A DNA stretch of 64,000 bases from a bacterium (GTDB lineage Bacteria > Patescibacteriota > Microgenomatia > Levybacterales > UBA12049), in contig JAKALS010000004.1 of NCBI GenBank assembly GCA_021813145.1, positions 8,594-72,593 on the forward strand, read 5' to 3'. Position numbers and translations under genes: made by a program. The notes beneath the pieces were generated by a model. It did no database searches. It was not told where the DNA came from and saw nothing but the letters and a program-made list of their open reading frames with translations. Positions 6,093-45,881 of this stretch are shown here, in pieces (position 1 is the stretch's first letter; every line of letters starts with the position of its first letter).

Positions 6093-8204
6093 ATGGCAGA
6101 ACAAACACAAGACAGGTTAAAAAGTTTAGATAAAGTAAGAAACATAGGGATTATTGCCCATATAGACGCCGGCAAGACAACAACTACAGAGCGTATTCTT
6201 TTTTATACCGGAAAAACCTACAAAATAGGAGATATTGACGAAGGAAACACTCAGATGGACTGGATGGAACAAGAAAGAGAAAGAGGAATTACAATCGTTT
6301 CCGCCGCAACTACGGCTTTTTGGAAAGATTACAGAATAAATATTATAGATACTCCCGGACATGTAGATTTTACCGCAGAAGTTGAAAGGTCGTTAAGGGT
6401 TTTAGACGGGGGAATAACTGTTTTGGACGCGGAAGAAGGAGTGCAATCGCAGTCAGAAACAGTCTGGAGACAGGCAGATAAATATAAAGTTCCTAGGCTT
6501 TGTTTTGTAAACAAAATGGATAAATTAGGAGCGGATTTTCTCGCAACTGTTAAATCCATAGAAGACAGACTCGGGGCAAATCCCCTTATAATGGTTCTTC
6601 CCATCGGTTCGGAATCTTCCTATAAAGGGATAGTTCATTTATTGGAAATGAAATCTTATATCTGGGGCTCGGACGAGTTGGGTGCAAAATTTGAGGTTTC
6701 GGATGAAATACCCGAAGACATGAAGGCCCAGGTGGAAGAATACAGGCATAAACTTATTGAAAAAATAGCGGAAACCGACGACGTTTTAATAGAAAAATAT
6801 TTAAACGGAGAAGAAATTTCAAACGACGAATTAAAAGCGGCTTTAAGGCGTGCGGTAATCGCTTATAAACTTGTCCCGATTTTTGCAGGATCATCTCTTA
6901 GAAACAAAGGTGTTCAGCCCCTTTTGGATGCGGTAGTAGATTATCTTCCTTCGCCTTTGGATGTGGGAGCAGTAACCGGAACAAATCCAAAGACAAACGG
7001 AGAAGAAAAAAGAGAGCCTAAAGAAGCAGATCCCATGGCAGGACTTGCTTTTAAAATACAGATAGACCCGCATGTTGGAAAACTCACATACTTTAGGGTC
7101 TATTCCGGAAAAATCCAGGCGGGTTCCTATATTTATAACTCCAATAAAAACAACACGGAAAGAGTCGGAAGGATTCTTTTGATGCATGCAAACCACAGGG
7201 AAGAAATAAAAGAAGCTTATGCGGGAGAGATTGTAGCTTTGGTCGGACTTAAGGATACAATAACAGGGGACACGCTTTGCGATGAAAATGCACCCATAAT
7301 TTTGGAGCAGATCTCTTTTCCCGAACCCGTTATTTCTTTGGCAATAGAACCAAAAACAAAAGCGGACCAGGAAAAACTGGGGTTTGCTCTTAAAAGGCTT
7401 TCCGAAGAAGATCCGACATTTTCTATAAAAACAAACCACGAAACAGGACAGACAATTATCTCGGGAATGGGAGAATTACAACTTGAGGTTATGGTAGACA
7501 GGATGAAAAGAGAATTCGGTGTTTTGGCAAATGTCGGAGCTCCCCAGGTAGCTTATAAGGAAACTGTTAAGGGAGAGGGAGAAGGAGAAGGAAAATACAT
7601 AAGACAGTCCGGAGGACATGGACAATACGGACACTGCTGGCTTAGGGTTAAACCCAAGGCAAGAGGTGAAGGATACGAGTTTGTCGATGCTATTAAAGGA
7701 GGAGCAATCCCCGCGGAGTTTGTTGTTTCTATACAAAAAGGAGTCAAGGAGACAATGGAAAACGGAATTCTTTTGGGATACCCGATGGTGGATATGGAAG
7801 TAACGGTTTATGACGGAAGTTTCCACGAAGTAGACTCTTCCGATATGGCATTTAAGATAGCAGCTTCCCAGGCCTTACAGGCAGCGGCCAAAAAAGCAGA
7901 ATTGTCGCTTTTGGAGCCTATTATGAAAGTTGAAGTTACGACTCCTTCGGAGTTTATGGGAGATGTAATAGGAGATTTGTCCGCAAAAAGGGCGCAGATT
8001 ATGGGAACGGAAGAAAGAGGGAAAGCAACTGTTATTTTGGCAATGGTTCCTTTGGCCGAGCTTTCCGGTTATGCAACAACTTTAAGGTCTATGTCGCAAG
8101 GCCGTGCATCTTATTATATGGAACCTTCACATTACGAAGAAGTTCCGCAAAATATAGTAGCCCAAATGCTTGCAAAATCCACATTTACGGGAAGAGTCGA
8201 ATAA
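6093..8204 (+). CDS. fusA: Elongation factor G
   Basis: 703 aa; G-domain [27 protein letters not shown] motifs. Confidence 0.97.
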
Positions 8205-8678
8205 TCAGGCCGCGGAGGGATAATCTCTTTGAATTCTTCTTAATTGATTGTTAAAATTTTTTGTTATATCGTTTCTGCTTCTACTTCCGTCTAAAAGTAT
8301 TAATCTTTGGCTTGCAAGCCATTCTCTTACCGGGACATGGATTCCGGTTTTTGATAGTCTATTTCCAATTTGTTTTATAAACTCACTTACTCCTGTTTGA
8401 CTTGATTTAACCTGTACCCAAACGATGTCCCCTGTTACTAAATGAACGGTTAAATCTCTTCCTCTTATGTCCTCATCGCTGAATTGTTCGTTTCTTATTA
8501 CTTCTTCAACCGTGTCCTGTCCTTGAATAACTGCGGCGGCTCTCATTTCGGATTTTCTTCCCCTTTTTTGGTCTTCGTGATAGCGTTCGAGTTCTTTTAT
8601 TTGTGAAGAAGAGAGTAAGGAGGTATCCCGGTATCCGGGAAAAAAGTTTCCTGGGGCAATTTCTACTGCAATTGCCAT
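8205..8678 (-). CDS. Hypothetical protein (157 aa), convergent with fusA with zero spacing
   Basis: ORF only; Arg/Gln-rich, no motif recognised; first gene of accessory insertion between fusA and tuf. Confidence 0.45.
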   Translation of the reverse strand: MAIAVEIAPGNFFPGYRDTSLLSSSQIKELERYHEDQKRGRKSEMRAAAVIQGQDTVEEVIRNEQFSDEDIRGRDLTVHLVTGDIVWVQVKSSQTGVSEFIKQIGNRLSKTGIHVPVREWLASQRLILLDGSRSRNDITKNFNNQLRRIQRDYPSAA

Positions 8679-8730
8679 CTAATTCCATTTTTAATTATAG
8701 AAATTACTTTGTCAATACAGCAAAAACGGG

Positions 8731-8739
8731 TGATATAAT
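8731..8739 (+). promoter_or_regulatory. Extended -10 promoter TGATATAAT, 6 nt upstream of the ATG at 8746 (predicts leaderless mRNA)
   Basis: Sequence match to TGnTATAAT; possible -35 TTGTCA at 8709-8714 with 19-nt spacer. Confidence 0.5.
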
Positions 8740-8745
8740 TTAATC

Positions 8746-9345
8746 ATGATGAATGATGCTGTCAGACAAGGGTATAACAAAGTTGCCGATAAATATCTGG
8801 AAGAAAGAGATCAATTTAAAAACGATAAATACCTCAAGAAATTCAATTCTTTACTTTCTCCCGAGTCTTTAATTTTAGATATAGGGTGCGGAGCAGGAAA
8901 ACCGGTGGACAAGTTTTTCATACAGCACGGACATCGAATAATCGGAATAGATATTTCGGAAAAACAAGTGGAACTTGCCAGGCAAAATGTTCCTCAGGGT
9001 TTGTTTAAGGTTGAAGATATGTCAGCCCTTAAACCCGGGGAATATAAAGTAGATGCTGTTATTTCGTTTTATGCAATTTTTCATATCGACAGAGAAACTC
9101 ATTTCGAGTTATTCAAAAAGATTTATTCATTTCTACCGACAGGCGGGTTAATTATGGTTACAATGGGATCAAGTAGCTGGGAAGGAAGCGAAGAAGATTT
9201 TCATGGTGGTAAAATGACTTGGAGCCATTTTGGAAAAGAGAAAAATAGACAAATAGTTGAGGCACAGAGCTTTAAGGTTTTAACAGATGAAATTGATGAA
9301 AACGGAAATGAAAAACATCAAGTAATTATTGCCAAAAAAATATGA
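8746..9345 (+). CDS. Class I SAM-dependent methyltransferase
   Basis: LILDIGCGAGKPVD (motif I GxGxG), acidic residue after beta2 (IGIDISE), 199 aa. Confidence 0.8.
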   Translation: MMNDAVRQGYNKVADKYLEERDQFKNDKYLKKFNSLLSPESLILDIGCGAGKPVDKFFIQHGHRIIGIDISEKQVELARQNVPQGLFKVEDMSALKPGEYKVDAVISFYAIFHIDRETHFELFKKIYSFLPTGGLIMVTMGSSSWEGSEEDFHGGKMTWSHFGKEKNRQIVEAQSFKVLTDEIDENGNEKHQVIIAKKI

Positions 9346-9872
9346 CAAAGACTAAAACAGGAAAAGAAATAACAATAAGATATCCGAGAAAATCCGATGC
9401 AGAAGAAATGTGGAGGTATATTAACGAACTTTCAAAAGAAAAAACTTTTGTAAGGTTTCAGGGCGAAGAAGTTTCTTTTGAAGACGAATCTAAATATCTG
9501 GAAACGATGCTTAAAAGAATAGAAGAAAAAAAGTCGGTTACACTTATGGCATTTTTCGGAGAAGAAATAATAGGAATTACCGGTATTAACATGATGGAAA
9601 AGACGGAAAAACACATTGGGGTTTTCGGAATTTCGGTTGCAAAAGATTATAGAAATGACGGTGTGGGAAAAATTCTTATGGAAAAAGTAATAGAAGAAGC
9701 AAAGAAAAACATAGAGGAATTAAAGATTATAATACTTGAGGTCTATGCCAAAAACTCCATTGCAAAAAGGGTGTACGAAGGGTTCGGCTTTAAGCAGTAT
9801 GGTCTTTTGCCGGAAGGAATAATAAGAGACGAGGGTTTTGATGACGCCCTTTTTATGTACAAAAAAATATGA
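9342..9872 (+). CDS. GNAT family N-acetyltransferase (RimJ/RimL-size)
   Basis: IGVFGISVAKDYRNDGVGKILMEKVIEEAKK acetyl-CoA binding motif (R/Q-x-x-G-x-G/A); start overlaps upstream stop (ATGA). Confidence 0.8.
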   Translation: MTKTKTGKEITIRYPRKSDAEEMWRYINELSKEKTFVRFQGEEVSFEDESKYLETMLKRIEEKKSVTLMAFFGEEIIGITGINMMEKTEKHIGVFGISVAKDYRNDGVGKILMEKVIEEAKKNIEELKIIILEVYAKNSIAKRVYEGFGFKQYGLLPEGIIRDEGFDDALFMYKKI

Positions 9873-10288
9873 ACGATAAAAATGTAAAAGTTGGAGTGGG
9901 AGTGATGGTTTTAAAAGACGGAAAAGTACTTCTTGGAAAAAGAAAAGGTTCTCACGGAGAAGGAGAATACGCATTTCCCGGTGGACATATGGAATTCGGA
10001 GAATCTTTTGAGGATTGCGCAAAAAGGGAAACTTTTGAAGAAACAGGAATAAAAATAAAAAATGTCAGATTTATTCTTTTATCGAATATAAAAATCTGGG
10101 AAGGTAAACATTATATTCACATAGGTTTATTGGCAGATTGGGAAAGCGGGGAACCGGAAGTTAAGGAAATAAATAAAGCGGAGAATTGGGATTGGTACGA
10201 GCTGGATAAATTGCCAAGCCCTTTATTTCTTCCGGTTATCCAGGAAATAGAAGCATATAAGGAAGGTAAAAATTTTATAGACTCATGA
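9869..10288 (+). CDS. NUDIX hydrolase
   Basis: Nudix box GGHMEFGESFEDCAKRETFEETGI; ATGA overlap with GNAT. Confidence 0.85.
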   Translation: MNDKNVKVGVGVMVLKDGKVLLGKRKGSHGEGEYAFPGGHMEFGESFEDCAKRETFEETGIKIKNVRFILLSNIKIWEGKHYIHIGLLADWESGEPEVKEINKAENWDWYELDKLPSPLFLPVIQEIEAYKEGKNFIDS

Positions 10289-10911
10289 GTAATAATTTTT
10301 GCACCATTTATTTGGTAAGACACGGACTTTCGGGAGCAAATGTAGCAAGAACAGTCGGAGGAAATACGGGTCTTGTTGAGAAAGGAAAAGAGCAAGCCAT
10401 GGAGTTGGGAAAGAAATTAAAAGATATAGATTTTGCCGCGGTTTTTTCTTCCGATTTGTTAAGAGCTAGACAGACAGCAGAGCTAATTATTGAAGGAAGA
10501 AATTTGGAAGTTTCAACACACAAGGAATTAAGGGAAAGAAGTTTTGGAAGCATAGATAACAAAAACGATAAAGAATTCATTCACCTTTTTCAAGCTTTAA
10601 AAGATGTATCGGATGATGAGTATTGGAAGTGGAAAATAGTAGATGATATGGAAAGCGCACAGGAAGCTTTCGGAAGATTTTTTAATGCTTTAAAGAAAAT
10701 CTCAAAAAAATATTTAGGTAAAGAAATTTTGATAGTAAGTCATGGAACGGTAATGCGTTCTTTACTGGTTTATCTGGGTTATGGAAGTTTTAAAGAACTT
10801 CCTACAAATTCTCTACAAAACACGGGTTATATAAAATTAAAAAGTGATGGCGAAAATTTCATAATTGAAGATACATGGGGTGTTAATAAAATGAAAGGAT
10901 TATCATTGTAG
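10285..10911 (+). CDS. Histidine phosphatase (phosphoglycerate-mutase-like) family protein
   Basis: IYLVRHGLSGAN (RHG catalytic motif), ...ILIVSHGTVMRSL second His motif; ATGA overlap with upstream. Confidence 0.8.
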   Translation: MSNNFCTIYLVRHGLSGANVARTVGGNTGLVEKGKEQAMELGKKLKDIDFAAVFSSDLLRARQTAELIIEGRNLEVSTHKELRERSFGSIDNKNDKEFIHLFQALKDVSDDEYWKWKIVDDMESAQEAFGRFFNALKKISKKYLGKEILIVSHGTVMRSLLVYLGYGSFKELPTNSLQNTGYIKLKSDGENFIIEDTWGVNKMKGLSL

Positions 10912-10912
10912 G

Positions 10913-11431
10913 ATGGAGCCTAAAGAATTTTATAAATTTTGTCCAAAGTGCGGAGGGGATTTGATTCCCGGAGAAGAACAGCTTCTTATTTGCGGTAAGT
11001 GTTCTTTCCGCTTTTACATTAATCCTTTGCCTTGCAATGCGGCGATCTTGGAAAACGAAAAGGGCGAAATACTTCTTGTAAAAAGAAAATACGACCCGAT
11101 GAAAGGATACTGGGATTGGCCGGGAGGTTTTATAGACCCGGGGGAAAGCCTTGAAGATTCGGTAAAAAGAGAAATAAAAGAAGAGCTAAATGTAGATATT
11201 AAAGTTATGGGGATTATCGGAGTTTATAACGACAGATATCTTTATCAAGATATTTTGCATTACTCTTTATGCGCTGCGGTATCGGCGAAAATAACTGCGG
11301 GACAATTAAAAGCCAACGATGACATAGATGGATTTGAATTTTTTAACAAAGACAAAATACTTAAACTGGATTTTGCATTTCCCTCGATTAAAAAAGGAAT
11401 AGAAGATTACTTTAAAAAGAGAAAAGTTTAG
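10913..11431 (+). CDS. NUDIX hydrolase with N-terminal C4 zinc ribbon (NudC-like architecture)
   Basis: CPKCGG...CGKCSF zinc ribbon then Nudix box GGFIDPGESLEDSVKREIKEELNV. Confidence 0.8.
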   Translation: MEPKEFYKFCPKCGGDLIPGEEQLLICGKCSFRFYINPLPCNAAILENEKGEILLVKRKYDPMKGYWDWPGGFIDPGESLEDSVKREIKEELNVDIKVMGIIGVYNDRYLYQDILHYSLCAAVSAKITAGQLKANDDIDGFEFFNKDKILKLDFAFPSIKKGIEDYFKKRKV

Positions 11432-13665
11432 GCTTTTTCGAAAATTACGTTTGAAGAATCTATGGGTACTGCTTGAGGCTCTTTGATTTTCTCATCCGGT
11501 TTTTTCTCGTGTATTTTTTCTTCCTTTTTGTTTTTTGAATACCTTTGTGCGGAAACTTTAATAACTTTTTCCCTGTTTTGGGTTTTTGATTGTGGCAAAG
11601 GTAGGGTTTGGGCAAGAAAAGGTGCCGTTGTTATAGAATCTATGGAGAGTTTTGTTAATATCTGGTAGTTCCCCAAAGCCAAAAGGTCATCTTCTTTAAA
11701 TCTTTCCCCGAATTCTTTTGCAAGATAGTAAGTGTCCTGCGCTCCGACTACGAAAGACAAAAGGGTTCCGATATTTCCGAATATTGCTGACCTTACATCA
11801 TCGGGTATTTGCGCCATATATTGGTTTGCCAAAATTAAATTAAGCCTGTATTTTCTTGCCTCGGACAATATTTTTATAAACGAACCCGTTGCAAAATTTT
11901 GGAACTCGTCTACATAAAGATAAAAATCTTTTCTTTGGGCTTCGGGTATATCGACTCTTTTCATTGCCGCAAGCTGTATTTTTGTAATTATCATCGCTCC
12001 CAAAAGAGATGAGTTATCTTCTCCGAGTTTTCCCTGCGACAGGTTAAGAATTAGAATTTTTCCTTCGTTCATTATCTTTTCAAGGTCTATTGTTGATTTG
12101 GGGTGACCTATTATATTTCTTACAGTCGGAGAGGAAACAAACTGCCCGACTTTATTAAGGATGGGAGATATGGACTCGCTGTAAAGCTTGGGAGGCATTT
12201 TTTCAAACTCATTTTGCCAGTAGCTTTTAAGGACAGGATCCTTAAGGTCTTTTACTATTTTATCCCTGAAACTTTTATCCGTTAGAAGTGGGTGTACATC
12301 CATAAATGTTGAATCCGGTTTTTCCAAAAGGGTAAGGACTGTATTTCTTAAAATGTATTCGAGTCTGGGTCCCCATGATGTTCCGTAGAGTTTCTTGAAT
12401 ATTGAAACTATTCCCGATGCAATCAACTCTTTTTGCGTTGTCCCTGCTTCCAGAGGATTTAAATGGAAAGAGCTGTCCGGGTCGGAGGGATTAAGGTAAA
12501 TTATGTCGTTAATTCTGTAAGAAGGAATATAGTCTAAGATAAGAGAAGTCAAATCTCCGTGCGGGTCTATAACGGCAAGGCCTTCGTTATTTCGCATATC
12601 GTTTATAAGCATATTTGCGATAAGAGTTGATTTTCCCGCTCCCGTTTTTCCCACAATATACTGATGTTTCCTTCTGTCATTTCTTTTTATACCGAAATTT
12701 GTAATTTTGTTTTTAAATTCCGTGTTTGCAAAAAAATTAATCTCCTTTTTCTCTTCTTGCGAAAGGTTTGCGGCAATAGGTAGATTTTCCGGCGGCTCGG
12801 AAAGGATTGTTTTTGTCCAGGAGAGATTATGGATTTTAGAAAGCTGTTCGGTAGGAAGATGATAAAGGGTTGCTATTTCCGACACATTTAAAATTTCGCT
12901 TGCCGGAATAAATGCTTTTGTCCTTTCCATTATTGCCCTGTGCAGTCTTTTTCTTTGCCAAAGTACGGGTCTTCTTAAAAAGAGGCTGTTTCCGGAAGGG
13001 TTTGAAAAAATAGAGAAGCCGTTGGTTATCTGGAAAAAATCCGAGTTGTTTGCCGTTTTTGCAAGAATTCTTATTCCCGTCTTAAAACCGTTTTTGCCGA
13101 TTTTTTCAGTAATAAATTTTGAATAAGGATTGGCGCCTTCTCCCGGTTCTTTCTGAAGGCTTTTTTGTCCTCTTGACTGCCACGACTGTGAAACGGGAAG
13201 AAGCAGGTATTGGATAACGACGGCGTTATCTTTATCCATTTTGGAAAGAAGGCTTAAAAGCGAAGAGAGGGGGTCTACTTCTTTATAATCTCTATAATTT
13301 TTTAATGGGTAAATAAAAGAAGATCGTAGTTTTAATCTTCCTTCGTGAATAACTCCCTTTCCTTCTAAAAGTGCAGGCAAATAATCTTTTACCTCGTTTA
13401 TAAGTGCTTTGGGATACTGAGCGCTGAGTTGTCCGATAACGAATGTTTGGTAGGCTTTTGGAACGACCAGGAAAAAATGTATCTGCTGGTCAAAAACCGC
13501 TATTTCCAAACTTATGGGAATACCCTTTTTGTAGACATATAAAATGGAACGCCTCAAGTTGGTTAAGCTGGCCAGAAACTGTTCCATGGCCTCGGGCGTT
13601 TCTTCGGATTTTCTCGGGGTTTTTATCTCAAGGACCGTTTTTTTGTCCATATTTAGCTTATGCAA
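11428..13665 (-). CDS. FtsK/HerA/TraG-VirD4-superfamily P-loop ATPase (type IV coupling-protein-like), 745 aa
   Basis: Walker A GKTGAGKST followed by VIDPHGD, Walker B LYVDEFQNF; no obvious N-terminal TM segments; convergent with the 5-gene cassette. Confidence 0.55.
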   Translation of the reverse strand: MHKLNMDKKTVLEIKTPRKSEETPEAMEQFLASLTNLRRSILYVYKKGIPISLEIAVFDQQIHFFLVVPKAYQTFVIGQLSAQYPKALINEVKDYLPALLEGKGVIHEGRLKLRSSFIYPLKNYRDYKEVDPLSSLLSLLSKMDKDNAVVIQYLLLPVSQSWQSRGQKSLQKEPGEGANPYSKFITEKIGKNGFKTGIRILAKTANNSDFFQITNGFSIFSNPSGNSLFLRRPVLWQRKRLHRAIMERTKAFIPASEILNVSEIATLYHLPTEQLSKIHNLSWTKTILSEPPENLPIAANLSQEEKKEINFFANTEFKNKITNFGIKRNDRRKHQYIVGKTGAGKSTLIANMLINDMRNNEGLAVIDPHGDLTSLILDYIPSYRINDIIYLNPSDPDSSFHLNPLEAGTTQKELIASGIVSIFKKLYGTSWGPRLEYILRNTVLTLLEKPDSTFMDVHPLLTDKSFRDKIVKDLKDPVLKSYWQNEFEKMPPKLYSESISPILNKVGQFVSSPTVRNIIGHPKSTIDLEKIMNEGKILILNLSQGKLGEDNSSLLGAMIITKIQLAAMKRVDIPEAQRKDFYLYVDEFQNFATGSFIKILSEARKYRLNLILANQYMAQIPDDVRSAIFGNIGTLLSFVVGAQDTYYLAKEFGERFKEDDLLALGNYQILTKLSIDSITTAPFLAQTLPLPQSKTQNREKVIKVSAQRYSKNKKEEKIHEKKPDEKIKEPQAVPIDSSNVIFEKA

Positions 13666-13776: not shown

Positions 13777-13810
13777 AGAATGAGACCTCCAAAAAGGTCT
13801 CATTCTTTTG
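13777..13810 (+). promoter_or_regulatory. Perfect 11-bp hairpin AGAATGAGACC-(8)-GGTCTCATTCT followed by TTTTG, immediately 5' of yggT-like gene
   Basis: Seen in sequence. Confidence 0.4.
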
Positions 13811-14134
13811 AGAATTATGAAAGTAGCAGGATTTTTTTCAACCATAATAAATATAGTCTTCACCGTAATAGAGCTTTTGATAGGAGCAAGAGTTGTATTG
13901 AGGCTTTTGGGTGCCAATCCTTTTACTCCATTTGTTAACTGGGTCTATACGCTTTCCTCGGCTCTTATTTCTCCGTTTGCCAATATTTTTCCGAGCCCGG
14001 TTCTTAGAGGCGGATTTGTTTTGGATATTCCCGCGATCGTGGGACTTCTAGTTTATGCAATTTTGGCCTACGTAATTTTTCAGCTCATTGAATTTTTGTC
14101 GTACAAAAGGACAACAGTGTATACAACTCCTTAA
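13808..14134 (+). CDS. YggT-family small integral membrane protein
   Basis: 108 aa, two hydrophobic segments, conserved ...SPFANIFP...RGG.VLDIPAIVGLL pattern similar to YggT/Ycf19. Confidence 0.55.
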   Translation: MRIMKVAGFFSTIINIVFTVIELLIGARVVLRLLGANPFTPFVNWVYTLSSALISPFANIFPSPVLRGGFVLDIPAIVGLLVYAILAYVIFQLIEFLSYKRTTVYTTP

Positions 14135-14208: not shown

Positions 14209-15390
14209 ATGGCAGAAACATATCAAAGAACAAAACCACACGTTAATATCGGAACCATCGGTCATGTAGACCATGGTAAGACAACATTAACAGCAGCAAT
14301 TGCTACTGTTTTATCCAAACAGGGTAAAGCAAAAGCGATGAAATATGAAGATATTGATAACGCCCCGGAAGAAAGAGCAAGGGGAGTCACCATCAATATT
14401 ACCCACGTAGAATACGAAACAGAAAAAAGGCATTATGCACATATAGATGCTCCGGGACATGCCGATTATATTAAGAACATGATTACGGGAGCCGCCCAAA
14501 TGGACGGTGCAATCCTCGTAGTCTCGGCCCCCGACGGACCCATGCCTCAAACAAGAGAACACATTTTACTAGCACACCAGGTTCAGGTCCCTTCAATAGT
14601 AGTATTTCTTAATAAATGCGATATGGTTTCGGATCCCGAACTCTTGGACTTGGTTGAAATGGAAGTAAGGGAACTTCTCACAAAATACCAGTATCCGGGA
14701 AATGATGTGCCGATTATAAGAGGCTCGGCTCTTAAAGCTTTAGAAGGCGACGCGGAAGCAGAAAAACAAATACTGGCATTAATGGATGCGGTAGATAATT
14801 ATATTCCTACACCTGTAAGAGATACCGAAAAACCTTTCCTTATGCCTGTTGAAGACGTTTTCTCAATAAAGGGGAGAGGGACAGTCGTAACGGGAAGAAT
14901 AGAAAGAGGCAAGATTAAAATCAACGATCCGGTCGAAATAATAGGAATCAAACCCACAAGACAGTCGGTTGTAACGGGCGTAGAAATGTTTAGAAAACAG
15001 CTCGATGAAGGAATGGCCGGAGATAACGTAGGACTTCTTCTTAGGGGTGTAGAAAAAACCGATGTAGAAAGAGGACAGGTTGTTGCAAAACCCGGATCGA
15101 TAACACCCCACACACAATTTGAAGCAGAAGTTTATATCCTTACAAAAGAAGAAGGAGGAAGACATACTCCCTTCTTTACAGGATACAGGCCGCAATTCTA
15201 TATAAGGACAACGGACGTAACCGGAGAAGCTACGCTTCCTTCCGGAGTAGAAATGGTAATGCCCGGAGATAACGCAAAAATGAATGTAAAACTTATTGTG
15301 CCGGTTGCTATGGAAGAAGGATTAAGGTTTGCAGTAAGAGAAGGCGGAAAGACGGTAGGAGCAGGAGTAATTTCCAAGATTATTGCTTAA
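14209..15390 (+). CDS. tuf: Elongation factor Tu
   Basis: 393 aa; [22 protein letters not shown] motifs. Confidence 0.98.
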
Positions 15391-42036: not shown

Positions 42037-44895
42037 TTACACATTGCATAATAATTTGTACTCGCAGTTTAGGCAAAGTACATTTCCGCTGCATTTAAAA
42101 TCGCTTTTTTCAATTTCCTTTATTTTTTCGATTAAATCTTCCTCCACTTTTATTAAGTCTTCTTTTTTAAACGCCATTGTCTTTTTTGTTCCGTCTTCCA
42201 AAAAGTAAAGGGAAAGAGATATATCTTCCGGCTTGCGGTTAAAAATTTTATCGTTAATTTTTGTAGCCGCCAAAGCATATATTTCCAACTGCAGTTTATG
42301 AGCCTTGTCCGCCTTTGGATTATCTTCTCCGGTTTTGTAATCTATTATTTCTATGCCTTTTTCCTTAGCGTCGACCCTATCTATTTTTCCGAATACTTTT
42401 ACTCCGTTCTTTAAAACAAAAGAGAAAGGCAGTTCTATTCCTATTGGTTTTATAGGCGGTTTACATTCTTTTTCGTAAAATCTTTCAAGAATTTTTGTTG
42501 CCTGTTCATATCTTTCCTTCTCGTGACTTTTGTTTTCGTATCCGTCGCTCATCCATTCTTTTTTTAGCATCTCTTTAAATTCCAAAAGAGTTGGAGATTT
42601 TTCTTCGGTAACGTTTTTATAAAAATCGTAAAGTGTATTGTGCAGGGAAATGCCGAAACTTTGGACAGAGCTTATGGGTGTCGGAATATTTAATATTGCT
42701 TTTGCTTTATAATGTAGAGGGCATATATCAAACATTTGAAGGTTTGAATAAGTAATATAAGAAATTTTAAACGGAGGTTTTTCTTCGTCTTTTTCTTCTT
42801 CTATTTCGTAGTTTGAGAGCACGTCGGAAAGAGTCAACTGTTTTGCGTTTTTTAACAGGTTTTCTTCTATTTTAAGTTTTGGGAGAGCTTCATAGATAAA
42901 AGGCGAAAGTTTCTTTGAACGTTTTCCGTTACCGTAATAGTTTGCTGCAGTAAAATACAGGGCTTCTTTAGCTCTTGTCATTCCGACATAAAACAATCTT
43001 CTTTCTTCCTGAAGGTGGAAGTCAACCCCTTCGGGTAGTTTTTCTTTTATTATTCCCAAAGGCAAAGGTATTTTTTCCGATCTTTCTCTTGAAGGAAAAC
43101 GCTCCGAGACGAGGTTTACAAGAAAAACAACCTTGAATTCCAGTCCCTTGCTGGAGTGAACAGTTAAAATATTAACCGCATTTTTGTCTCTTATGTCTAT
43201 ATCGGCAGCAGTAGGGCTGTCTCCAAGCGAAAGCATAAGAGTAAGCCATTCAACTACATCAAAAATATTACTGTTATTTTTTTCGGTTTCGAAATTTTTT
43301 ATCCTGTCGAAGAATTTTGCTATATTCTTTACCCTTTTTTCTTCTTTAATGGAATCAGTTTTTTGAAATGATTCATAAAGACCCGAATCTATAAGGAAGT
43401 AGTAAAGAATCTGTCCTGCGACTTCTTTCTTACTTTTTTCAAGGTGTCTTTCAACCATGAATTTAAACTTTCCAAGTTTTTCCCGGGTCTCGTCTTTTAG
43501 AAACGCATGTTCCATATCCATTGCTTCAAAAAGCGAAAGATTTTTTTTCTTCGCAAAATTAAGAAGGAAATTCAGTTCTATATTAGAAATTTTGAAAATA
43601 TCCATGGAAAGAACTCTAAAAAGCGATACGGAATCCGAAAGGTTTGTTAAAAATGTCAGATACGCTATTAAATCTTTTATTTCTTCCTGCTGGAAAAGAT
43701 AGCCTGGACCCAAAAACTGGTAAGGAATTTTATGCCTTTGCAATGCCTGGGTAATACTTTGGGAATGATTGTTGGCTCTGACAAGAATTGCTATATCCCG
43801 GTATTCATATTCTTTTGCAAGTTTTTTTATTGTTTTTGCTATTTCGTCTGCTTCGTCTTCGACTTTTTCCGCGTGTATAATTTCTATTTCGCGTTCCATG
43901 GTTTTTGTGTGGCTTTGGAGTTTTTTATTGATATTTTCTACAACCTCAAGACGGTTCGGATTGTTGTTTTGTATGAGCTGATGGGCAGAATCGAGTATTG
44001 TTTGGGTTGAGCGGTAATTGTCGGTTAAAGTTATTATTTTTGCATTCGGAAAATTTTTCTTAAACTGCAGGACGTTTGATACGGCAGCTCCGCGGAATCT
44101 ATAGATGGACTGGTCGTCGTCTGCCACCACCGTAATATTTTTATCGTTACCGGCAAGGAGAATGGCAAGCTCGTTTTGCGAATAATTTGTATCCTGAAAT
44201 TCGTCTACCAAAACATATTTAAACTGTTCTTGATATTTTTTAAGAATATTTTTTCTTGTCCTGAAAAGTAGAAGAGTATTGGAAATAAGGTCTGAAAAAT
44301 CCATAACTCCCTCCTTGGCTTTTAGTTCCTCGTATGCTTTATAAGCATTTGCAAGTTCAAGGTATTCAACTTTTTCGTCAACGGAAGTAAGTTCCTTTGC
44401 CCATTTTAAATATTCTTCGGGCGTTATGTCTTCGTCTTTAAGTCTTGAAAAATGTGTAAGTAGGGCGTCGAGAAATTTTGTTGGATTCCCCAAGGGCCTG
44501 AAAAATTTAAGCCCCAAATTAAAAATATTTTTTTTCATAAGAAGTACGGATTCGGCTTCTGTGATAAGTCTGTAAGCAGGGTCAAGTCCTATTGCGTGGG
44601 CGTCATCTCTTAAAATTCTGTCGCAGAAAGAGTGGAAAGTGTGAATCCACATGTTTAAATATCCGTAGGGAAGAAGAATATCCACTCTTTCCTGCATTTC
44701 AAAAGCAGCTTTGTCGGTAAAGGTAAGGGCTAAAACTTCCGAAGGAGGAACTTTTTTTTCAACGATAAGGTGTTTTATTCTTTCGGTTATTACGGTTGTT
44801 TTTCCCGTTCCGGCTCCTGCAATAATAAGAAGCGGCCCTTTGTCGTGCTCCACTGCCTCAAGCTGTTCTTTGTTGAGGGTTTTTTCCGTCTTCAT
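42037..44895 (-). CDS. UvrD/PcrA-family helicase fused to C-terminal RecB/Cas4-like PD-(D/E)xK nuclease with Cys4 cluster (AddA-like architecture)
   Basis: N-terminal GAGTGKTT Walker A; C-terminal GKIDRVD...EIIDYKTG nuclease motifs; Cys in DICPLHY plus CSGNVLCLNCEYKLLC. Confidence 0.85.
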   Translation of the reverse strand: MKTEKTLNKEQLEAVEHDKGPLLIIAGAGTGKTTVITERIKHLIVEKKVPPSEVLALTFTDKAAFEMQERVDILLPYGYLNMWIHTFHSFCDRILRDDAHAIGLDPAYRLITEAESVLLMKKNIFNLGLKFFRPLGNPTKFLDALLTHFSRLKDEDITPEEYLKWAKELTSVDEKVEYLELANAYKAYEELKAKEGVMDFSDLISNTLLLFRTRKNILKKYQEQFKYVLVDEFQDTNYSQNELAILLAGNDKNITVVADDDQSIYRFRGAAVSNVLQFKKNFPNAKIITLTDNYRSTQTILDSAHQLIQNNNPNRLEVVENINKKLQSHTKTMEREIEIIHAEKVEDEADEIAKTIKKLAKEYEYRDIAILVRANNHSQSITQALQRHKIPYQFLGPGYLFQQEEIKDLIAYLTFLTNLSDSVSLFRVLSMDIFKISNIELNFLLNFAKKKNLSLFEAMDMEHAFLKDETREKLGKFKFMVERHLEKSKKEVAGQILYYFLIDSGLYESFQKTDSIKEEKRVKNIAKFFDRIKNFETEKNNSNIFDVVEWLTLMLSLGDSPTAADIDIRDKNAVNILTVHSSKGLEFKVVFLVNLVSERFPSRERSEKIPLPLGIIKEKLPEGVDFHLQEERRLFYVGMTRAKEALYFTAANYYGNGKRSKKLSPFIYEALPKLKIEENLLKNAKQLTLSDVLSNYEIEEEKDEEKPPFKISYITYSNLQMFDICPLHYKAKAILNIPTPISSVQSFGISLHNTLYDFYKNVTEEKSPTLLEFKEMLKKEWMSDGYENKSHEKERYEQATKILERFYEKECKPPIKPIGIELPFSFVLKNGVKVFGKIDRVDAKEKGIEIIDYKTGEDNPKADKAHKLQLEIYALAATKINDKIFNRKPEDISLSLYFLEDGTKKTMAFKKEDLIKVEEDLIEKIKEIEKSDFKCSGNVLCLNCEYKLLCNV

Positions 44896-44912: not shown

Positions 44913-45881
44913 CTAATTTTCGCTCTTTTCGCCTATTCTTTTTGTAGAATTAAGCTTTTGTCCGAGTTGCAAAAATCCCGAAGTTACGTTGTTAAATTGT
45001 GTATAGGCGTTATTCAAATGCTTACCTAAAACATTAAGACTTTCGTTTGTTTTGTCGTAGTCTATTTGAAGCGCTCTAAGCATTGCAAAAACTTCTCTTG
45101 ATTTTGCCTCCAGCTTTTTACCTTCAAAAGAAAGAAGAATTGTCTGAAGGTGTGCATAAAGGGTAGAAGGTGAAACTATATAAACTCTTGCCCTTCTTGC
45201 ATATTCCATGATGTCCTGGCTGTTTACGACTTCGTAGAAAACCGACTCGCTCGGAACATACATAAGGGCAAAATCCATTGTTCCTTCCGCCGGCAAAATG
45301 TATTTTTTCGAAATAGCGTCTACGTGTTTTTTAACGTCTTTAATAAATTCCTTTTCATATTGTTCTTTTTCACCGTTTACTGCTTTTGTCATTTTCTGGA
45401 AATTTTCCATAGGGAATTTGGAGTCTATCGGTAAAATCCCCGCGTCTGTTTTTATTGCGGCATCCACCTTTTCTCCCGATTTAAATTCGTATTGTAAATT
45501 AAAACTGTTTTTGGGAAACATTTGTGCGATTAAATCCTTAAGCACCTGTTCGCCTATATTTCCCCGAAGCTTAGGGCTTTTTAAGAATTCCTGGAGCTCA
45601 CGCATATTCCTTCCAATTTCGTTCATCTGCCCGACCTCTTTGCTTACGTCTCTCATTGCAAGAGCAGCTTTATCTAATCTTTCGTTTAATTGTCTTGAAT
45701 TTTCCTGCAGAGTTTTCACCATATTGCCGGTTGAGGAGTTCATTGTATTTTGCATGGACTTTAGCCATTCCATTAAAGCCTCGTCGGTTTTTTGGGTGTT
45801 TGATTTTTTATTTAGTAAATAAAACATAATTCCAAATCCTAAGATTACAATAAGAAACAGTATGGTGAATTCAAAAGACAT
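44913..45881 (-). CDS. rmuC: DNA recombination protein RmuC
   Basis: N-terminal TM, coiled-coil, C-terminal DFALMYVPSESVFYEV region typical of RmuC. Confidence 0.75.
   Translation of the reverse strand: MSFEFTILFLIVILGFGIMFYLLNKKSNTQKTDEALMEWLKSMQNTMNSSTGNMVKTLQENSRQLNERLDKAALAMRDVSKEVGQMNEIGRNMRELQEFLKSPKLRGNIGEQVLKDLIAQMFPKNSFNLQYEFKSGEKVDAAIKTDAGILPIDSKFPMENFQKMTKAVNGEKEQYEKEFIKDVKKHVDAISKKYILPAEGTMDFALMYVPSESVFYEVVNSQDIMEYARRARVYIVSPSTLYAHLQTILLSFEGKKLEAKSREVFAMLRALQIDYDKTNESLNVLGKHLNNAYTQFNNVTSGFLQLGQKLNSTKRIGEKSEN

Follow-up and report, generated by a model that had tools for sequence, protein, structure and literature searches.

A five-gene cluster between fusA and tuf of a Patescibacterium may be one arrangement of a variable island of nucleotide-sanitation enzymes

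Introduction

The canonical str operon has the order rpsL-rpsG-fusA-tuf. The known genes of house-cleaning enzymes are, to our knowledge, scattered single genes. Nudix, Maf and all-alpha NTP-PPase enzymes are classed together as house-cleaning enzymes (PMC3899018). Mycobacterial MutT1 joins a Nudix N-terminal domain to an RHG histidine-phosphatase C-terminal domain and acts on 8-oxo-(d)GTP, and recent work ascribes protein-phosphatase roles to these domains too (PMC11784022).

Here we describe a cluster of five small enzyme genes in a 64,000-nucleotide stretch of patescibacterial DNA (the window, whose positions are used throughout). The flanking order rpoB-rpoC-rpsL-rpsG-fusA ... tuf-rpsJ-rplC is kept as in the canonical str operon. 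In contrast to that operon, fusA and tuf stand 1.6-8.0 kb apart in this lineage (ten related loci), with variable genes on either strand between them, and the insert in the window has its own predicted promoter and opposite-strand boundaries. We put the probability at roughly 55% that this cluster is the form taken in one species by a fusA-tuf island which is specific to the lineage, varies combinatorially and serves as a modular nucleotide-sanitation toolkit.

Results

A transcription unit between fusA and tuf

The earlier note on this DNA had placed the cluster between the genes of EF-G and EF-Tu, and the features of the region agree:

6093-8204, plus strand: fusA (EF-G), left island boundary
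8205-8678, minus strand: orf157, 157 aa, unannotated, directly after fusA and divergent from the operon
8731-8739, plus strand: putative extended -10 promoter element TGaTATAAT (motif call), ending 6 nt upstream of the ATG at 8746
8746-9345, plus strand: class I SAM methyltransferase (MTase), 199 aa
9342-9872, plus strand: GNAT N-acetyltransferase, 176 aa
9869-10288, plus strand: short Nudix hydrolase (NudA), 139 aa
10285-10911, plus strand: histidine phosphatase, branch 1, PhoE/CobC-like, 208 aa
10913-11431, plus strand: zinc-ribbon Nudix hydrolase (Zn-Nudix), 172 aa
11428-13665, minus strand: DUF8128/TrwB-type (HerA-like) P-loop ATPase, 745 aa, convergent with the operon
13808-14134: YggT-family gene, upstream of tuf
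14209-15390, plus strand: tuf (EF-Tu), right island boundary

By the ORF calls of the window, the five enzyme genes are intact and run head to tail on the plus strand (8746-11431); full-length homologues of the same size back their start codons. As the earlier note had stated, ATGA stop/start overlaps join the cistrons at 9342, 9869 and 10285. The fourth junction, TAG-G-ATG, leaves a 1-nt gap, at 10912. Since minus-strand genes lie on both sides (8205-8678 and 11428-13665, the ATPase and Zn-Nudix stop codons overlapping by 4 nt), the cluster forms its own transcription unit and does not belong to a fusA-tuf read-through.

Across the window, 21 of the 60 same-strand neighbour pairs (35%) overlap or lie within 1 nt of each other, and 17 of 56 do so when the cluster's own pairs are set aside. 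Tight junctions are thus this genome's normal packing and no special trait of the cluster. Four of them in a row indicate an operon, with coupling of no unusual degree. Of the tight stoichiometric co-expression proposed in the earlier note, the operon and probable translational coupling stand; the stoichiometry was over-read, as the overlaps are normal packing and are what one would see where Shine-Dalgarno sites are missing.

The putative promoter sits in the 67 bp (8679-8745) that separate the operon from the divergent gene. In sister islands, 8 of 12 plus-strand blocks begin with this TATAAT-6 nt-ATG geometry, with the TG extension in 7 of these 8, and in the window a TAnAAT ending 5-8 nt before the start was found for 11 of 74 genes, against 1.5 ± 1.25 in shuffles. 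These motifs suggest that the five-gene mRNA is leaderless. The downstream starts have no Shine-Dalgarno sites, and the tight junctions fit this combination with a leaderless first cistron. On the motifs, the four downstream cistrons would be translated by termination-reinitiation at ATGA or abutting junctions; such a dependence, we propose, would be the reason why junctions remain tight after a gene is inserted or swapped.

The five enzymes

The earlier note's domain assignments (MTase, GNAT, two Nudix proteins, His-phosphatase) are borne out by Pfam and by catalytic motifs that are intact in all five proteins. Since none of the five reaches a curated NCBIfam equivalog cutoff, we infer every substrate named below.

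The MTase matches Methyltransf_25 (59 bits) as well as Methyltransf_11 and CMAS, with motif I, DIGCGAG, at residues 45-51. Its best PDB matches are phosphoethanolamine N-methyltransferases and CMAS (30-37 bits); it reaches no NCBIfam cutoff and matches no DNA-MTase family of Pfam or NCBIfam. It is probably of the small-molecule type. A 68% identical relative lies between GNAT and tuf in locus L103, and relatives of 59-62% occur in other contexts; the gene appears to have been added at species level, at the block's 5′ end.

The flanking genes bring in a possible link to defence. The orf157 protein has no Pfam or NCBIfam match, its family (C2) has a conserved E...D...(Q/E)xKSS pattern, and it gives a weak profile match to 2eo0 (E=0.15); its single-sequence AF2 model (pLDDT 43) is unusable. 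The ATPase has a 76% orthologue at the same position in L083/L084, and in L101 a 37% relative immediately precedes a relative of the MTase. Nudix, MTase, HerA/TrwB-like ATPase and a PD-(D/E)xK-like protein might together form an anti-phage or conjugation-related system. In favour are the hypervariable gap content and a nuclease-like motif in the orf157 family, and PADLOC returns domain-level matches of the MTase to mad2 (63.5 bits), of the ATPase to mad8 (52.6 bits) and HerA, and of both Nudix proteins to PDC-S07. However, these matches span generic domains only (positions 254-406 of 492 in mad2), no more than 2 of 10 islands carry the ATPase, and 2 the MTase, the MTase lacks the DNA-MTase match, and the short Nudix looks like a CPR-wide core gene. 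Nor did we find an integrase, repeat or tRNA at the site, or a foreign composition (GC z-scores -0.6 to -1.5). A defence or mobile-element island is therefore scarcely credible.

The GNAT (Acetyltransf_1, 62 bits; motif RNDGVG at residues 104-109) resembles RimI, RimJ and RimL in fold, size and proximity to translation genes, and RimI is its top NCBIfam match. It nevertheless remains below the RimI cutoffs (TIGR01575, 55.2 bits against 86.4; another RimI score, 31.9 against 173) and matches no RimJ/RimL profile of NCBIfam, which removes the ground for the RimJ/RimL role suggested earlier. Its nearest solved relative, 2i79, is an uncharacterised protein, and its match to MccE is weak (22.6 bits).

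The short Nudix (NUDIX, 76 bits; Nudix box at residues 39-61) aligns over nearly its full length with Rickettsia MutT (4kyx, 112 bits), AtNUDX1 (106 bits) and NUDT15 (88 bits), which are house-cleaning pyrophosphatases. It scores below the mutT equivalog cutoff (44.9 against 97.9) and is a probable candidate sanitiser of non-canonical (d)NTPs; it does not group with NAD/ADP-ribose enzymes. Its family comprises 4108 homologues, 62-68% identical across CPR phyla; it is highly conserved and counts as a housekeeping gene throughout the CPR. A 74% relative stands in a GNAT-Nudix-HisPhos run with ATGA overlaps (L105-L109) and a 67% relative is solitary (L110); outside this lineage the gene is solitary.

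The His-phosphatase (His_Phos_1, 139 bits) has the catalytic RHG (residues 12-14) and SHG (152-154) of PhoE and CobC, its best PDB matches (PhoE 1ebb/1h2e, 70 bits; CobC 6nru, 51 bits), but falls below the CobC equivalog cutoff (TIGR03162, 95.7 bits against 162.9). Cobalamin synthesis is usually absent from CPR genomes, which makes alpha-ribazole phosphate an unlikely substrate. The MutT-type Nudix followed by a His-phosphatase repeats the domain order of MutT1 in two cistrons with an ATGA overlap. Unlike in MutT1, the genes are separate (MutT1 model 19.4 bits against a cutoff of 475), and in relatives Maf or Zn-Nudix may partner the His-phosphatase instead. Relatives of the His-phosphatase at 60-65% identity lie inside fusA-tuf gaps in 3 of 3 cases. 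A second paralogue (HP-B, 37-41% identical to the window's HP-A) occupies the same slot in L083, L003, L105 and L095.

The Zn-Nudix (NUDIX, 72 bits) has two CxxC motifs (residues 10-13 and 27-30) ahead of a Nudix box at 72-94; the four cysteines and the Nudix box are invariant in 35 homologues. For its AF2 model (pLDDT 94) Foldseek returned first the uncharacterised 3cng and then the zinc-motif and Nudix half of NudC/NUDT12. A Cys4 zinc motif and the Nudix domain that directly follows it make up the part that Foldseek and phmmer match in these enzymes. However, the Zn-Nudix lacks their N-terminal domain of about 95 residues, the matches beginning at NudC residue 95, and its target-normalised TM-score is only 0.38-0.42; the SQPWPFPxS signature of NudC is missing from it and from 35 of 35 homologues, and the NAD(+) diphosphatase model gives 48.9 bits against a cutoff of 158. 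The earlier label 'NudC-like' thus holds for the zinc ribbon and the Nudix fold and fails for the N-terminal domain and the signature, and 3cng is the nearer relative. The substrate would be of the NDP-X or dinucleotide type.

These assignments bear on a reading in which the cluster serves the translation apparatus: EF-Tu, EF-G or ribosomal proteins would be acetylated or methylated by GNAT and MTase, protein phosphatases would be found in the His-phosphatase and in the low-molecular-weight (LMW) phosphatase of relatives, and the Nudix enzymes would remove ADP-ribose or nucleotidyl adducts. The fusA-tuf location, the order Zn-Nudix-tuf in L003, L085 and L094, where the two genes are neighbours, the RimI match, and LMWPc and PIG-L in sister islands are in line with it, and protein-phosphatase activity is possible for domains of the His-phosphatase fold and for Nudix domains, as described for SixA on Ndk (PMC12934123) and for MutT1 (PMC11784022). 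Yet the GNAT profile scores point away from Rim enzymes, the His-phosphatase is of the 200-aa PhoE/CobC type (SixA model 28 bits against a cutoff of 74.5), the best matches of the MTase are small-molecule enzymes, and in the window fusA and tuf lie outside the operon's transcription unit. We also know of no protein-modification role for Maf, MazG or NUDT15-like Nudix enzymes. Taken together, we regard this reading as very unlikely.

The fusA-tuf gap in relatives

We compared ten related Patescibacteria loci, with EF-G 87-92% identical. In the gap, Zn-Nudix occurs in 8 of 10 and HisPhos in 6 of 10, frequencies biased upward because the loci were found by anchoring on one or other of these genes; the orf157 family follows with 5, GNAT with 4, Maf with 3, and MazG, PIG-L, YggT and the ATPase with 2 each. 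HIT and LMW phosphatase genes occur as well. The full five-gene set is confined to the window's species; beyond the window, MTase is seen again in L103 alone and the short Nudix in L105-L109 alone. Zn-Nudix stands without the others in L087, L089 and L093, HisPhos in L097, and L103 has GNAT-MTase only. Zn-Nudix is the most constant member, and 7 of its 8 relatives of at least 58% identity lie in a fusA-tuf gap. In other lineages, GNAT, HisPhos, MTase, Maf and MazG were not recurrent among 110 immediate neighbours of Zn-Nudix relatives, and tblastn for block partners found none at 79 of 80 such loci. The earlier view of the five genes as one stoichiometric pathway is therefore not supported, for members are individually dispensable and swapped for analogues in close relatives, and outside the lineage Zn-Nudix lacks these neighbours. 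Nor are the genes scattered and never co-occurring, the outcome that the note had named as speaking against its reading: subsets co-occur in the gap of relatives.

The 38 Pfam-annotated gap genes include 16 nucleotide pyrophosphatases and 9 phosphatases, which upholds the nucleotide-centred theme of the earlier note within the annotated share, about 40% of gap ORFs being unannotated. These pyrophosphatases differ from the known scattered house-cleaning genes in that several superfamilies meet in a single place within the str gene array and replace one another from relative to relative; Maf and MazG take equivalent positions in sister islands.

The turnover raises the question of neutral accretion, by which unrelated useful small genes would reshuffle in a permissive, recombination-prone gap, tight junctions being genome compaction. 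Heavy change of content among such similar genomes, the many ORFs that are unrelated or lack annotation (including a VWA and DnaJ block in L003, YggT and the ATPase), the ordinary packing and the non-foreign composition all speak for it. The 25 pyrophosphatases and phosphatases are, however, phosphoanhydride or phosphoester hydrolases of six superfamilies, none recurrent in control neighbourhoods; the order GNAT-(pyrophosphatase)-HisPhos is kept through swaps, and repeats, tRNA and integrase are missing from the site. We consider neutral accretion improbable.

Three enzymes make up the part that recurs: GNAT, a pyrophosphatase for nucleotides (short Nudix, Maf or Zn-Nudix) and His-phosphatase. 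This triad reads GNAT/HP in L094 and L083, GNAT/NudA/HP-A in the window, GNAT/NudA/HP-B in L105 and GNAT/Maf/HP-A/HP-B in L095, where HIT accompanies GNAT. Such a unit could be a dedicated module, in which GNAT, pyrophosphatase and His-phosphatase (with Zn-Nudix) process a single nucleotide-derived substrate one after another, with accessory roles for MTase and the second Nudix. The module might turn over NAD/ADP-ribose, or it might acetylate a toxic aminoacyl-nucleotide or nucleoside antibiotic, cleave its pyrophosphate and dephosphorylate it, and so inactivate it. GNAT (MccE/RimL) and HIT (MccH) enzymes detoxify microcin-C-type aminoacyl-nucleotides, so that HIT beside GNAT in L095 favours this role, tempered by the weak MccE match. 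Counting only loci with a visible downstream side that is not MTase, a His-phosphatase follows GNAT within one gene in 5 of 5 (the window and L083, L094, L095 and L105, whose GNAT orthologues are 55-74% identical), and a pyrophosphatase adjoins the His-phosphatase in 5 of 7. That a slot is refilled by an analogue (Maf or short Nudix; HP-A or HP-B) and the tight junctions are restored suggests that the combination is under selection. Against this, close relatives have each member without its partners, the 120 His-phosphatase homologues listed are all single-domain, without fusions, and the association is absent outside the lineage. Maf and NUDT15-like Nudix enzymes also differ in known substrate ranges, so their exchange fits a shared class of job better than a shared substrate. 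We regard a dedicated module as doubtful.

Discussion

The change of island content from relative to relative leads us to favour a shuffled toolkit of nucleotide clean-up enzymes over a new five-step pathway. The island of these Microgenomates-like Patescibacteria would gather small single-domain housekeeping enzymes, in which pyrophosphatases of four superfamilies (two Nudix types, Maf, MazG, HIT) prevail, with phosphomonoesterases (two His-phosphatase paralogues, LMW phosphatase) and others including GNAT, PIG-L deacetylase and MTase. The triad would usually be accompanied by a Zn-Nudix adjoining tuf, and the window would show this core (GNAT, HisPhos-A, Zn-Nudix) after two changes, the short Nudix having moved in between GNAT and HisPhos and an MTase having joined at the 5′ end.

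By family knowledge, the short Nudix may convert non-canonical (d)NTPs to (d)NMP and PPi, and the Zn-Nudix may cut an NDP-X or dinucleotide compound. By analogy with MutT1, the His-phosphatase would then strip the remaining phosphate from the product, and the damaged or toxic nucleoside would be discarded; GNAT and MTase may act on some small molecule. What the enzymes would have in common is the kind of work they do, nucleotide-pool sanitation or metabolite damage control, and the setting in which they are expressed, rather than a fixed linear pathway.

GNAT, MTase, PIG-L, YggT and the ATPase have no obvious fit to nucleotide sanitation. The order GNAT-pyrophosphatase-HisPhos, which outlasts the swaps, could mean a real sequential pathway.

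Organization of the cluster

The cluster comprises five plus-strand genes between fusA (EF-G) and tuf (EF-Tu), with a minus-strand gene on each side.

Genes of the cluster and its minus-strand neighbours (window coordinates)
8205-8678, minus strand: 157-aa gene between fusA and the cluster
8746-9345, plus strand: class I SAM methyltransferase (MTase; Pfam Methyltransf_25, 59 bits)
9342-9872, plus strand: GNAT (Pfam, 62 bits)
9869-10288, plus strand: short Nudix (Pfam Nudix, 76 bits)
10285-10911, plus strand: branch-1 histidine phosphatase (His-phosphatase; Pfam His_Phos_1, 138.6 bits, cutoff 21.7)
10913-11431, plus strand: Zn-ribbon Nudix (Zn-Nudix; Pfam Nudix, 72 bits), with two CxxC pairs N-terminal to the Nudix domain
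11428-13665, minus strand: 745-aa DUF8128/TrwB-type ATPase between the cluster and the YggT gene and tuf

Stop and start codons overlap as ATGA at 9342, 9869 and 10285, and TAG-G-ATG leaves a 1-nt gap ahead of 10913. All five proteins have intact catalytic motifs, and the start codons are backed by homologues of equal length; the ORFs, positions, overlaps and domain types listed in the earlier note were thus borne out by ORF calls, Pfam and motifs. An identical cluster is present on six contigs from several samples (ENA ERZ27237541 and Logan SRR13299515 carry this population), which indicates a real population rather than an assembly artefact, and the nearest named, more distant protein relatives belong to Levybacteria, Roizmanbacteria and Woesebacteria (Patescibacteria). 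The left flank reads rpoB-rpoC-rpsL-rpsG-fusA and the right flank tuf-rpsJ followed by the ribosomal protein array. The cluster itself is not co-directionally embedded in the str operon, having minus-strand genes on both sides; the stop codons of the ATPase and Zn-Nudix genes overlap by 4 nt, with no terminator in between. The ATPase belongs to a P-loop family (DUF8128 and TrwB/TraD/HerA-like, 740-889 aa) with further members at L083:6130-8352 (minus strand) and L101:7289-9958 (L numbers denote loci from related genomes or contigs). The L101 relative, 37% identical, is followed directly by an MTase-GNAT pair, and its context is unrelated.

Expression signals

In the 67-bp divergent spacer 5′ of the MTase gene, TGaTATAAT occupies 8731-8739, 6 nt before the ATG and without a Shine-Dalgarno (SD) sequence; the geometry at 8731-8746 is that of a predicted leaderless mRNA. 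An identical arrangement, TATAAT-6 nt-ATG, stands at the head of 8 of the 12 plus-strand blocks of sister islands (with the TG extension in 7 of these 8), where it precedes differing genes: Zn-Nudix, His-phosphatase and small unknown ORFs. Across the window, TAnAAT ends 5-8 nt before the start of 11 of 74 genes, as against 1.5±1.25 for shuffled upstream regions, and a permissive SD-like tetramer is found for only 20 of the 74. These patterns suggest that leaderless mRNAs may be widespread in this Patescibacteria lineage; a literature search found no paper on leaderless initiation in Patescibacteria. The promoter was called from the conserved −10-to-ATG geometry and not from a generic sigma-70 scan of the window, which gave no excess (17 found, 17.9 expected from shuffles) and missed the operon −10 box owing to its 19-nt spacing from the −35.

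TGnTATAAT or TGnTAnAAT at 5-8 nt (typically exactly 6) before SD-less starts was seen in the window at 8731-8746, 30873, 42037-44895 (minus strand), 44913-45881 (minus strand), 55324, 57634 and 59172; in the sister loci at L087:9945-10003, L089:5200-5253, L086:1894-1948 and L093:9724-9786; and also at L003:~9740-9785, L097:7948-8003 and L097:6708-6766. Several extended −10 genes begin within 4-19 nt of the end of the gene before them, implying promoters within upstream coding ends.

None of the four downstream cistrons of the cluster has an SD sequence. Overlapping or abutting junctions are found in 21 of 60 same-strand pairs in the window, and in 17 of 56 when the cluster is left out. Since tight junctions are common here and the downstream cistrons have no SD, we take the overlaps to mark an operon, with termination-reinitiation as the probable way in which its downstream cistrons are translated. 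The ATGA overlaps had been read as a sign of stoichiometric co-expression; with so many other pairs equally tight, a stoichiometric complex need not be invoked. More generally, stop/start overlaps should not be taken as a sign of such a complex where leaderless first cistrons and missing SD sequences make overlaps the default. The MTase/GNAT (9326-9345) and GNAT/Nudix (9853-9872) junctions have a 20-nt near-repeat in common, TTAT..(C/A)AAAAAAATATGA, and the upstream protein in either case ends in KKI-stop, with the following ATG embedded. The near-repeat may reflect a context favoured for reinitiation, or the way in which the cistrons were joined.

The encoded enzymes

NCBIfam equivalog cutoffs were reached by none of the five proteins. 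Of these, the short Nudix has the clearest affinities. Its Nudix box lies at residues 39-61, and residues 6-128, nearly the full length, match Rickettsia MutT (4kyx, 112 bits), Arabidopsis NUDX1 (AtNUDX1, 106 bits) and human NUDT15 (88 bits). Against the MutT equivalog TIGR00586 it scores 44.9 bits, below the cutoff of 97.9, so that strictly speaking it is not E. coli MutT. The family (139 aa; proteins P0246-P0368 among its members) gave 4108 matches, with 62-68% identity even between CPR phyla, in Parcubacteria, Paceibacterota, and Taylor-, Colwell- and Microgenomates-type genomes. This breadth and identity point to a core housekeeping enzyme; such conservation, unusual for a small enzyme, suggests that its activity may be essential in CPR.

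The Nudix box of Zn-Nudix, GFIDPGESLEDSVKREIKEELNV at residues 72-94, conforms to GX5EX7REUXEEXGU and is invariant in 35 homologues, as are the four Cys of the zinc motif (CPKC 10-13 and CGKC 27-30) directly N-terminal to it. The AF2 model has a pLDDT of 94. Structure and sequence both match best with 3cng, which is uncharacterised, and next with the zinc-motif and Nudix half of NudC/NUDT12. The earlier note called the zinc ribbon NudC-like. The architecture of zinc ribbon plus Nudix does resemble NudC, but the protein is not a NudC. NudC has an N-terminal domain of ~90-100 residues before the zinc motif, whereas Zn-Nudix has only 9 residues before the first Cys; phmmer aligns it to NudC chains only from NudC residue 95/96 on, and Foldseek TM-scores normalised to NudC are 0.38-0.42. 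The signature SQPWPFPxS downstream of the Nudix box marks NudC-type NADH pyrophosphatases. Neither the full nor a partial form of it is present in Zn-Nudix or in any of the 35 aligned homologues, and the alignment with NudC ends at residue 99, just past the Nudix box. The score against the NAD(+) diphosphatase model NF001299 is 48.9 bits (cutoff 158). On the missing domain, the missing signature and this score, assignment as NudC was rejected.

The His-phosphatase carries RHG at 12-14 and SHG at 152-154, as expected of branch 1, and has its nearest match in PhoE, a phosphatase of broad specificity (70 bits); CobC is matched as well. Assignment as the CobC alpha-ribazole phosphatase was rejected (TIGR03162, 95.7 bits, cutoff 162.9). 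The GNAT has as its nearest solved relative the uncharacterised 2i79, and the MTase matches small-molecule methyltransferases, generically only.

The position next to two translation factor genes lends appeal to a role of the cluster in modifying translation factors or ribosomal proteins, and a RimJ/RimL-type GNAT had been proposed. That proposal fails on the models: the GNAT stays below the cutoffs for RimI (55.2 bits for TIGR01575, cutoff 86.4; 31.9 bits for NF007025, cutoff 173) and does not match the RimJ/RimL NCBIfam models at E≤0.01. With position as its sole attraction, we regard such a role as very doubtful.

Gene content of the fusA-tuf gap in relatives

Reference genomes were searched for relatives of Zn-Nudix with a 13-sequence alignment. 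When the 80 loci found (30-59% identity) were searched by tblastn with all window proteins, the other four genes were seen in L003 only, which is the closest reference genome among them. When 110 genes immediately adjoining Zn-Nudix in these loci were classified by Pfam, GNAT, His_Phos, MTase, Maf and MazG did not recur; the commonest families, GluRS, TPR proteins and SOD, accounted for no more than 5 of the 110 each. Among closer relatives the location is shared: seven of eight Zn-Nudix relatives of at least 58% identity, and all three His-phosphatase relatives of at least 60%, lie between fusA and tuf, in genomes whose EF-G is 87-92% identical to that of the window. We surveyed ten such gaps (1.6-8.0 kb), taking greedy longest ORFs as gene calls.

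Families in ten fusA-tuf gaps (genes of the island led to these loci, which biases the counts for Zn-Nudix and His-phosphatase upward)
Zn-Nudix: 8/10
His-phosphatase: 6/10
Family of the 157-aa gene (orf157 family), minus strand: 5/10
GNAT: 4/10
Unknown ~127-aa family: 4/10
Maf: 3/10
MazG: 2/10
PIG-L: 2/10
YggT: 2/10
ATPase (DUF8128/TrwB-type): 2/10

HIT, an LMW phosphatase and a block with VWA and DnaJ genes were also found. The MTase was seen again once, as GNAT-MTase-tuf in L103, and the short Nudix once, as GNAT-Nudix-HisPhos with ATGA overlaps in a sister species (L105-L109); a 67% identical short Nudix relative is solitary. By a hand tally of the 38 Pfam-annotated gap genes (~40% of gap ORFs have no annotation), 16 encode nucleotide pyrophosphatases (Nudix, Maf, MazG, HIT) and 9 phosphatases. 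The full set of five was present only in the identical same-species copies, in none of the ten related islands and not in the fragments L103 and L105. Subsets of the genes thus co-occur in the gap of close relatives, but the five-gene set does so in none. Of the nucleotide pathway of five enzymes that the earlier note put forward, the operon and the nucleotide theme stand; a fixed five-enzyme pathway does not, the set being confined to one species.

Such turnover, together with unrelated passengers, would fit neutral accretion of genes at this site. The enrichment in hydrolases and the conserved gene order do not fit it, and we consider it rather improbable. A defence or mobile island is hardly credible: PADLOC gave generic domain matches, and mobility signatures are lacking (no tRNA nearby, repeats short and at chance level, no Rfam match, no composition anomaly). 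A known PADLOC defence system was rejected, as only generic domains were matched (mad2, positions 254-406 of 492; mad8; HerA; the single-gene candidate PDC-S07).

Some features of individual loci were also noted. In L003 a minus-strand block (6214-9450) includes one gene each for a VWA-domain and a DnaJ-domain protein, along with three ORFs that have no annotation, so the island accepts cargo outside nucleotide metabolism too. The ~127-aa family is encoded on the plus strand at L089:4217-4603, L094:7054-7437, L095:5464-5856 and L097:6608-7138; it is not in the window and has no Pfam or PHROG match. An HTH_38 gene (IS30-type helix-turn-helix; L097:1660-2679, minus strand) lies directly upstream of fusA, at the site expected for rpsG/rpsL, showing that the str array of that genome is disrupted on the other side of fusA as well. 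At L085:702-1883 (contig_95437) tuf is broken up into two or three frames, probably by sequencing or assembly frameshifts, and the JGI gene call P0053, which has both Nudix and GTP_EFTU domains, is probably a fused miscall; both reflect the placement of Zn-Nudix directly upstream of tuf.

A recurrent triad and its proposed function

What recurs on one strand in several species is not the five-gene set; it is a unit of adjacent GNAT, nucleotide pyrophosphatase and His-phosphatase genes, seen in loci that were reached through island genes and form a biased sample.

Gene order in the triad loci
Window: MTase / GNAT / Nudix / HisPhos / ZnNudix
L083: Maf / GNAT / HisPhos / 340 aa / ZnNudix
L094: GNAT / HisPhos / ZnNudix
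L095: HIT / GNAT / Maf / HisPhos / HisPhos
L105: GNAT / Nudix / HisPhos

Junctions in the triads overlap or are 1-2 nt long, and GNAT and HisPhos either adjoin each other or have Maf or the short Nudix between them. The His-phosphatases are of two paralogues, HP-A, 60-65% identical to that of the window (L094, L095, L097), and HP-B, 37-41% identical (L083, L003, L105 and a second copy in L095). The varying fillers and the two paralogues indicate that what is conserved is the class of activity, which different genes supply. In L095 the His-phosphatases stand in tandem just upstream of tuf (8001-8621 and 8611-9243; 65% and 38% identical to that of the window) with an 11-nt overlap, and the Maf/HP and HP/HP2 junctions have ATGAAAAATAATAATT in common.

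We favour, with a probability of roughly 55%, the reading that the cluster belongs to a modular island, specific to this lineage, of hydrolases and transferases with housekeeping roles, which would serve mainly to sanitise the nucleotide pool or to control metabolite damage. A published grouping of house-cleaning enzymes takes in Nudix, Maf and all-alpha NTP-PPases (PMC3899018). The window would then hold an ancestral-looking core (GNAT, HP-A, Zn-Nudix) into which the short Nudix, a core enzyme, was relocated and to which an MTase was added. Transcription would start leaderless at about 8746 and the four downstream cistrons would be translated through coupling; the short Nudix would convert non-canonical (d)NTPs to (d)NMPs, Zn-Nudix may cleave an NDP-X or dinucleotide compound, and the His-phosphatase might remove the remaining phosphate. 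A parallel for a Nudix step followed by a His-phosphatase step is mycobacterial MutT1, a fusion of Nudix and RHG-phosphatase (PMC11784022). There the two domains form one polypeptide, whereas the window has two cistrons in a like order; the MutT1 model NF052459 gives 19.4 bits (cutoff 475), and no fusion with Nudix or GNAT occurs among the 120 His-phosphatase homologues listed, all of which have PF00300 only.

The persistence of the triad through gene swaps would also be expected of a sequential module acting on one substrate. Each member, however, is found alone in some close relative, and no fusions were seen; we hold this alternative to be possible but unlikely. More speculatively, and with little confidence, the island could be a selected, lineage-wide locus of 'guanine-nucleotide hygiene', in which pyrophosphatases and phosphatases guard the two adjoining translational GTPases against guanine nucleotides that are damaged, methylated or of alarmone type (8-oxo-GTP, m7GTP, (p)ppGpp-like) in organisms that obtain nucleotides by salvage and not by synthesis; the triad would be a two- or three-step disposal route with exchangeable analogous enzymes.

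If the favoured reading, a modular island of housekeeping enzymes, is true, the island is a small, clean example of how metabolite damage control is organised in reduced genomes, with unrelated superfamilies of like function clustering and swapping between close relatives while order and tight junctions are kept. It would also offer testable substrate hypotheses for very common Patescibacteria proteins, including the short Nudix (>4000 homologues) and Zn-Nudix families. Even then the cluster reveals no new pathway or enzyme class. The enzyme families are already known, and the novelty is modest: our literature search found no description of Nudix genes in a fusA-tuf operon or of this arrangement, a variable house-cleaning island in the str array whose function is kept through non-orthologous swaps.

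The minus-strand orf157 family

Members of the orf157 family, which has no annotation, are 157-242 aa long and lie on the minus strand of the gap in five of the ten islands.

Members of the orf157 family (all minus strand)
Window: 8205-8678
L083: 551-1051
L093: 8626-9234
L094: 6358-6984
L097: 5644-6372

The gene directly follows fusA in the window, L083 and L094. A PHROG search gave nothing useful, a single-sequence AF2 model was unusable (pLDDT 43), and a profile search of the PDB returned only a weak match (2eo0, E=0.15). The conserved pattern E...R, D, (Q/E)-x-K-S-S is like a PD-(D/E)xK nuclease signature; if the family is a nuclease, it might relate to gene turnover at the fusA-tuf site.
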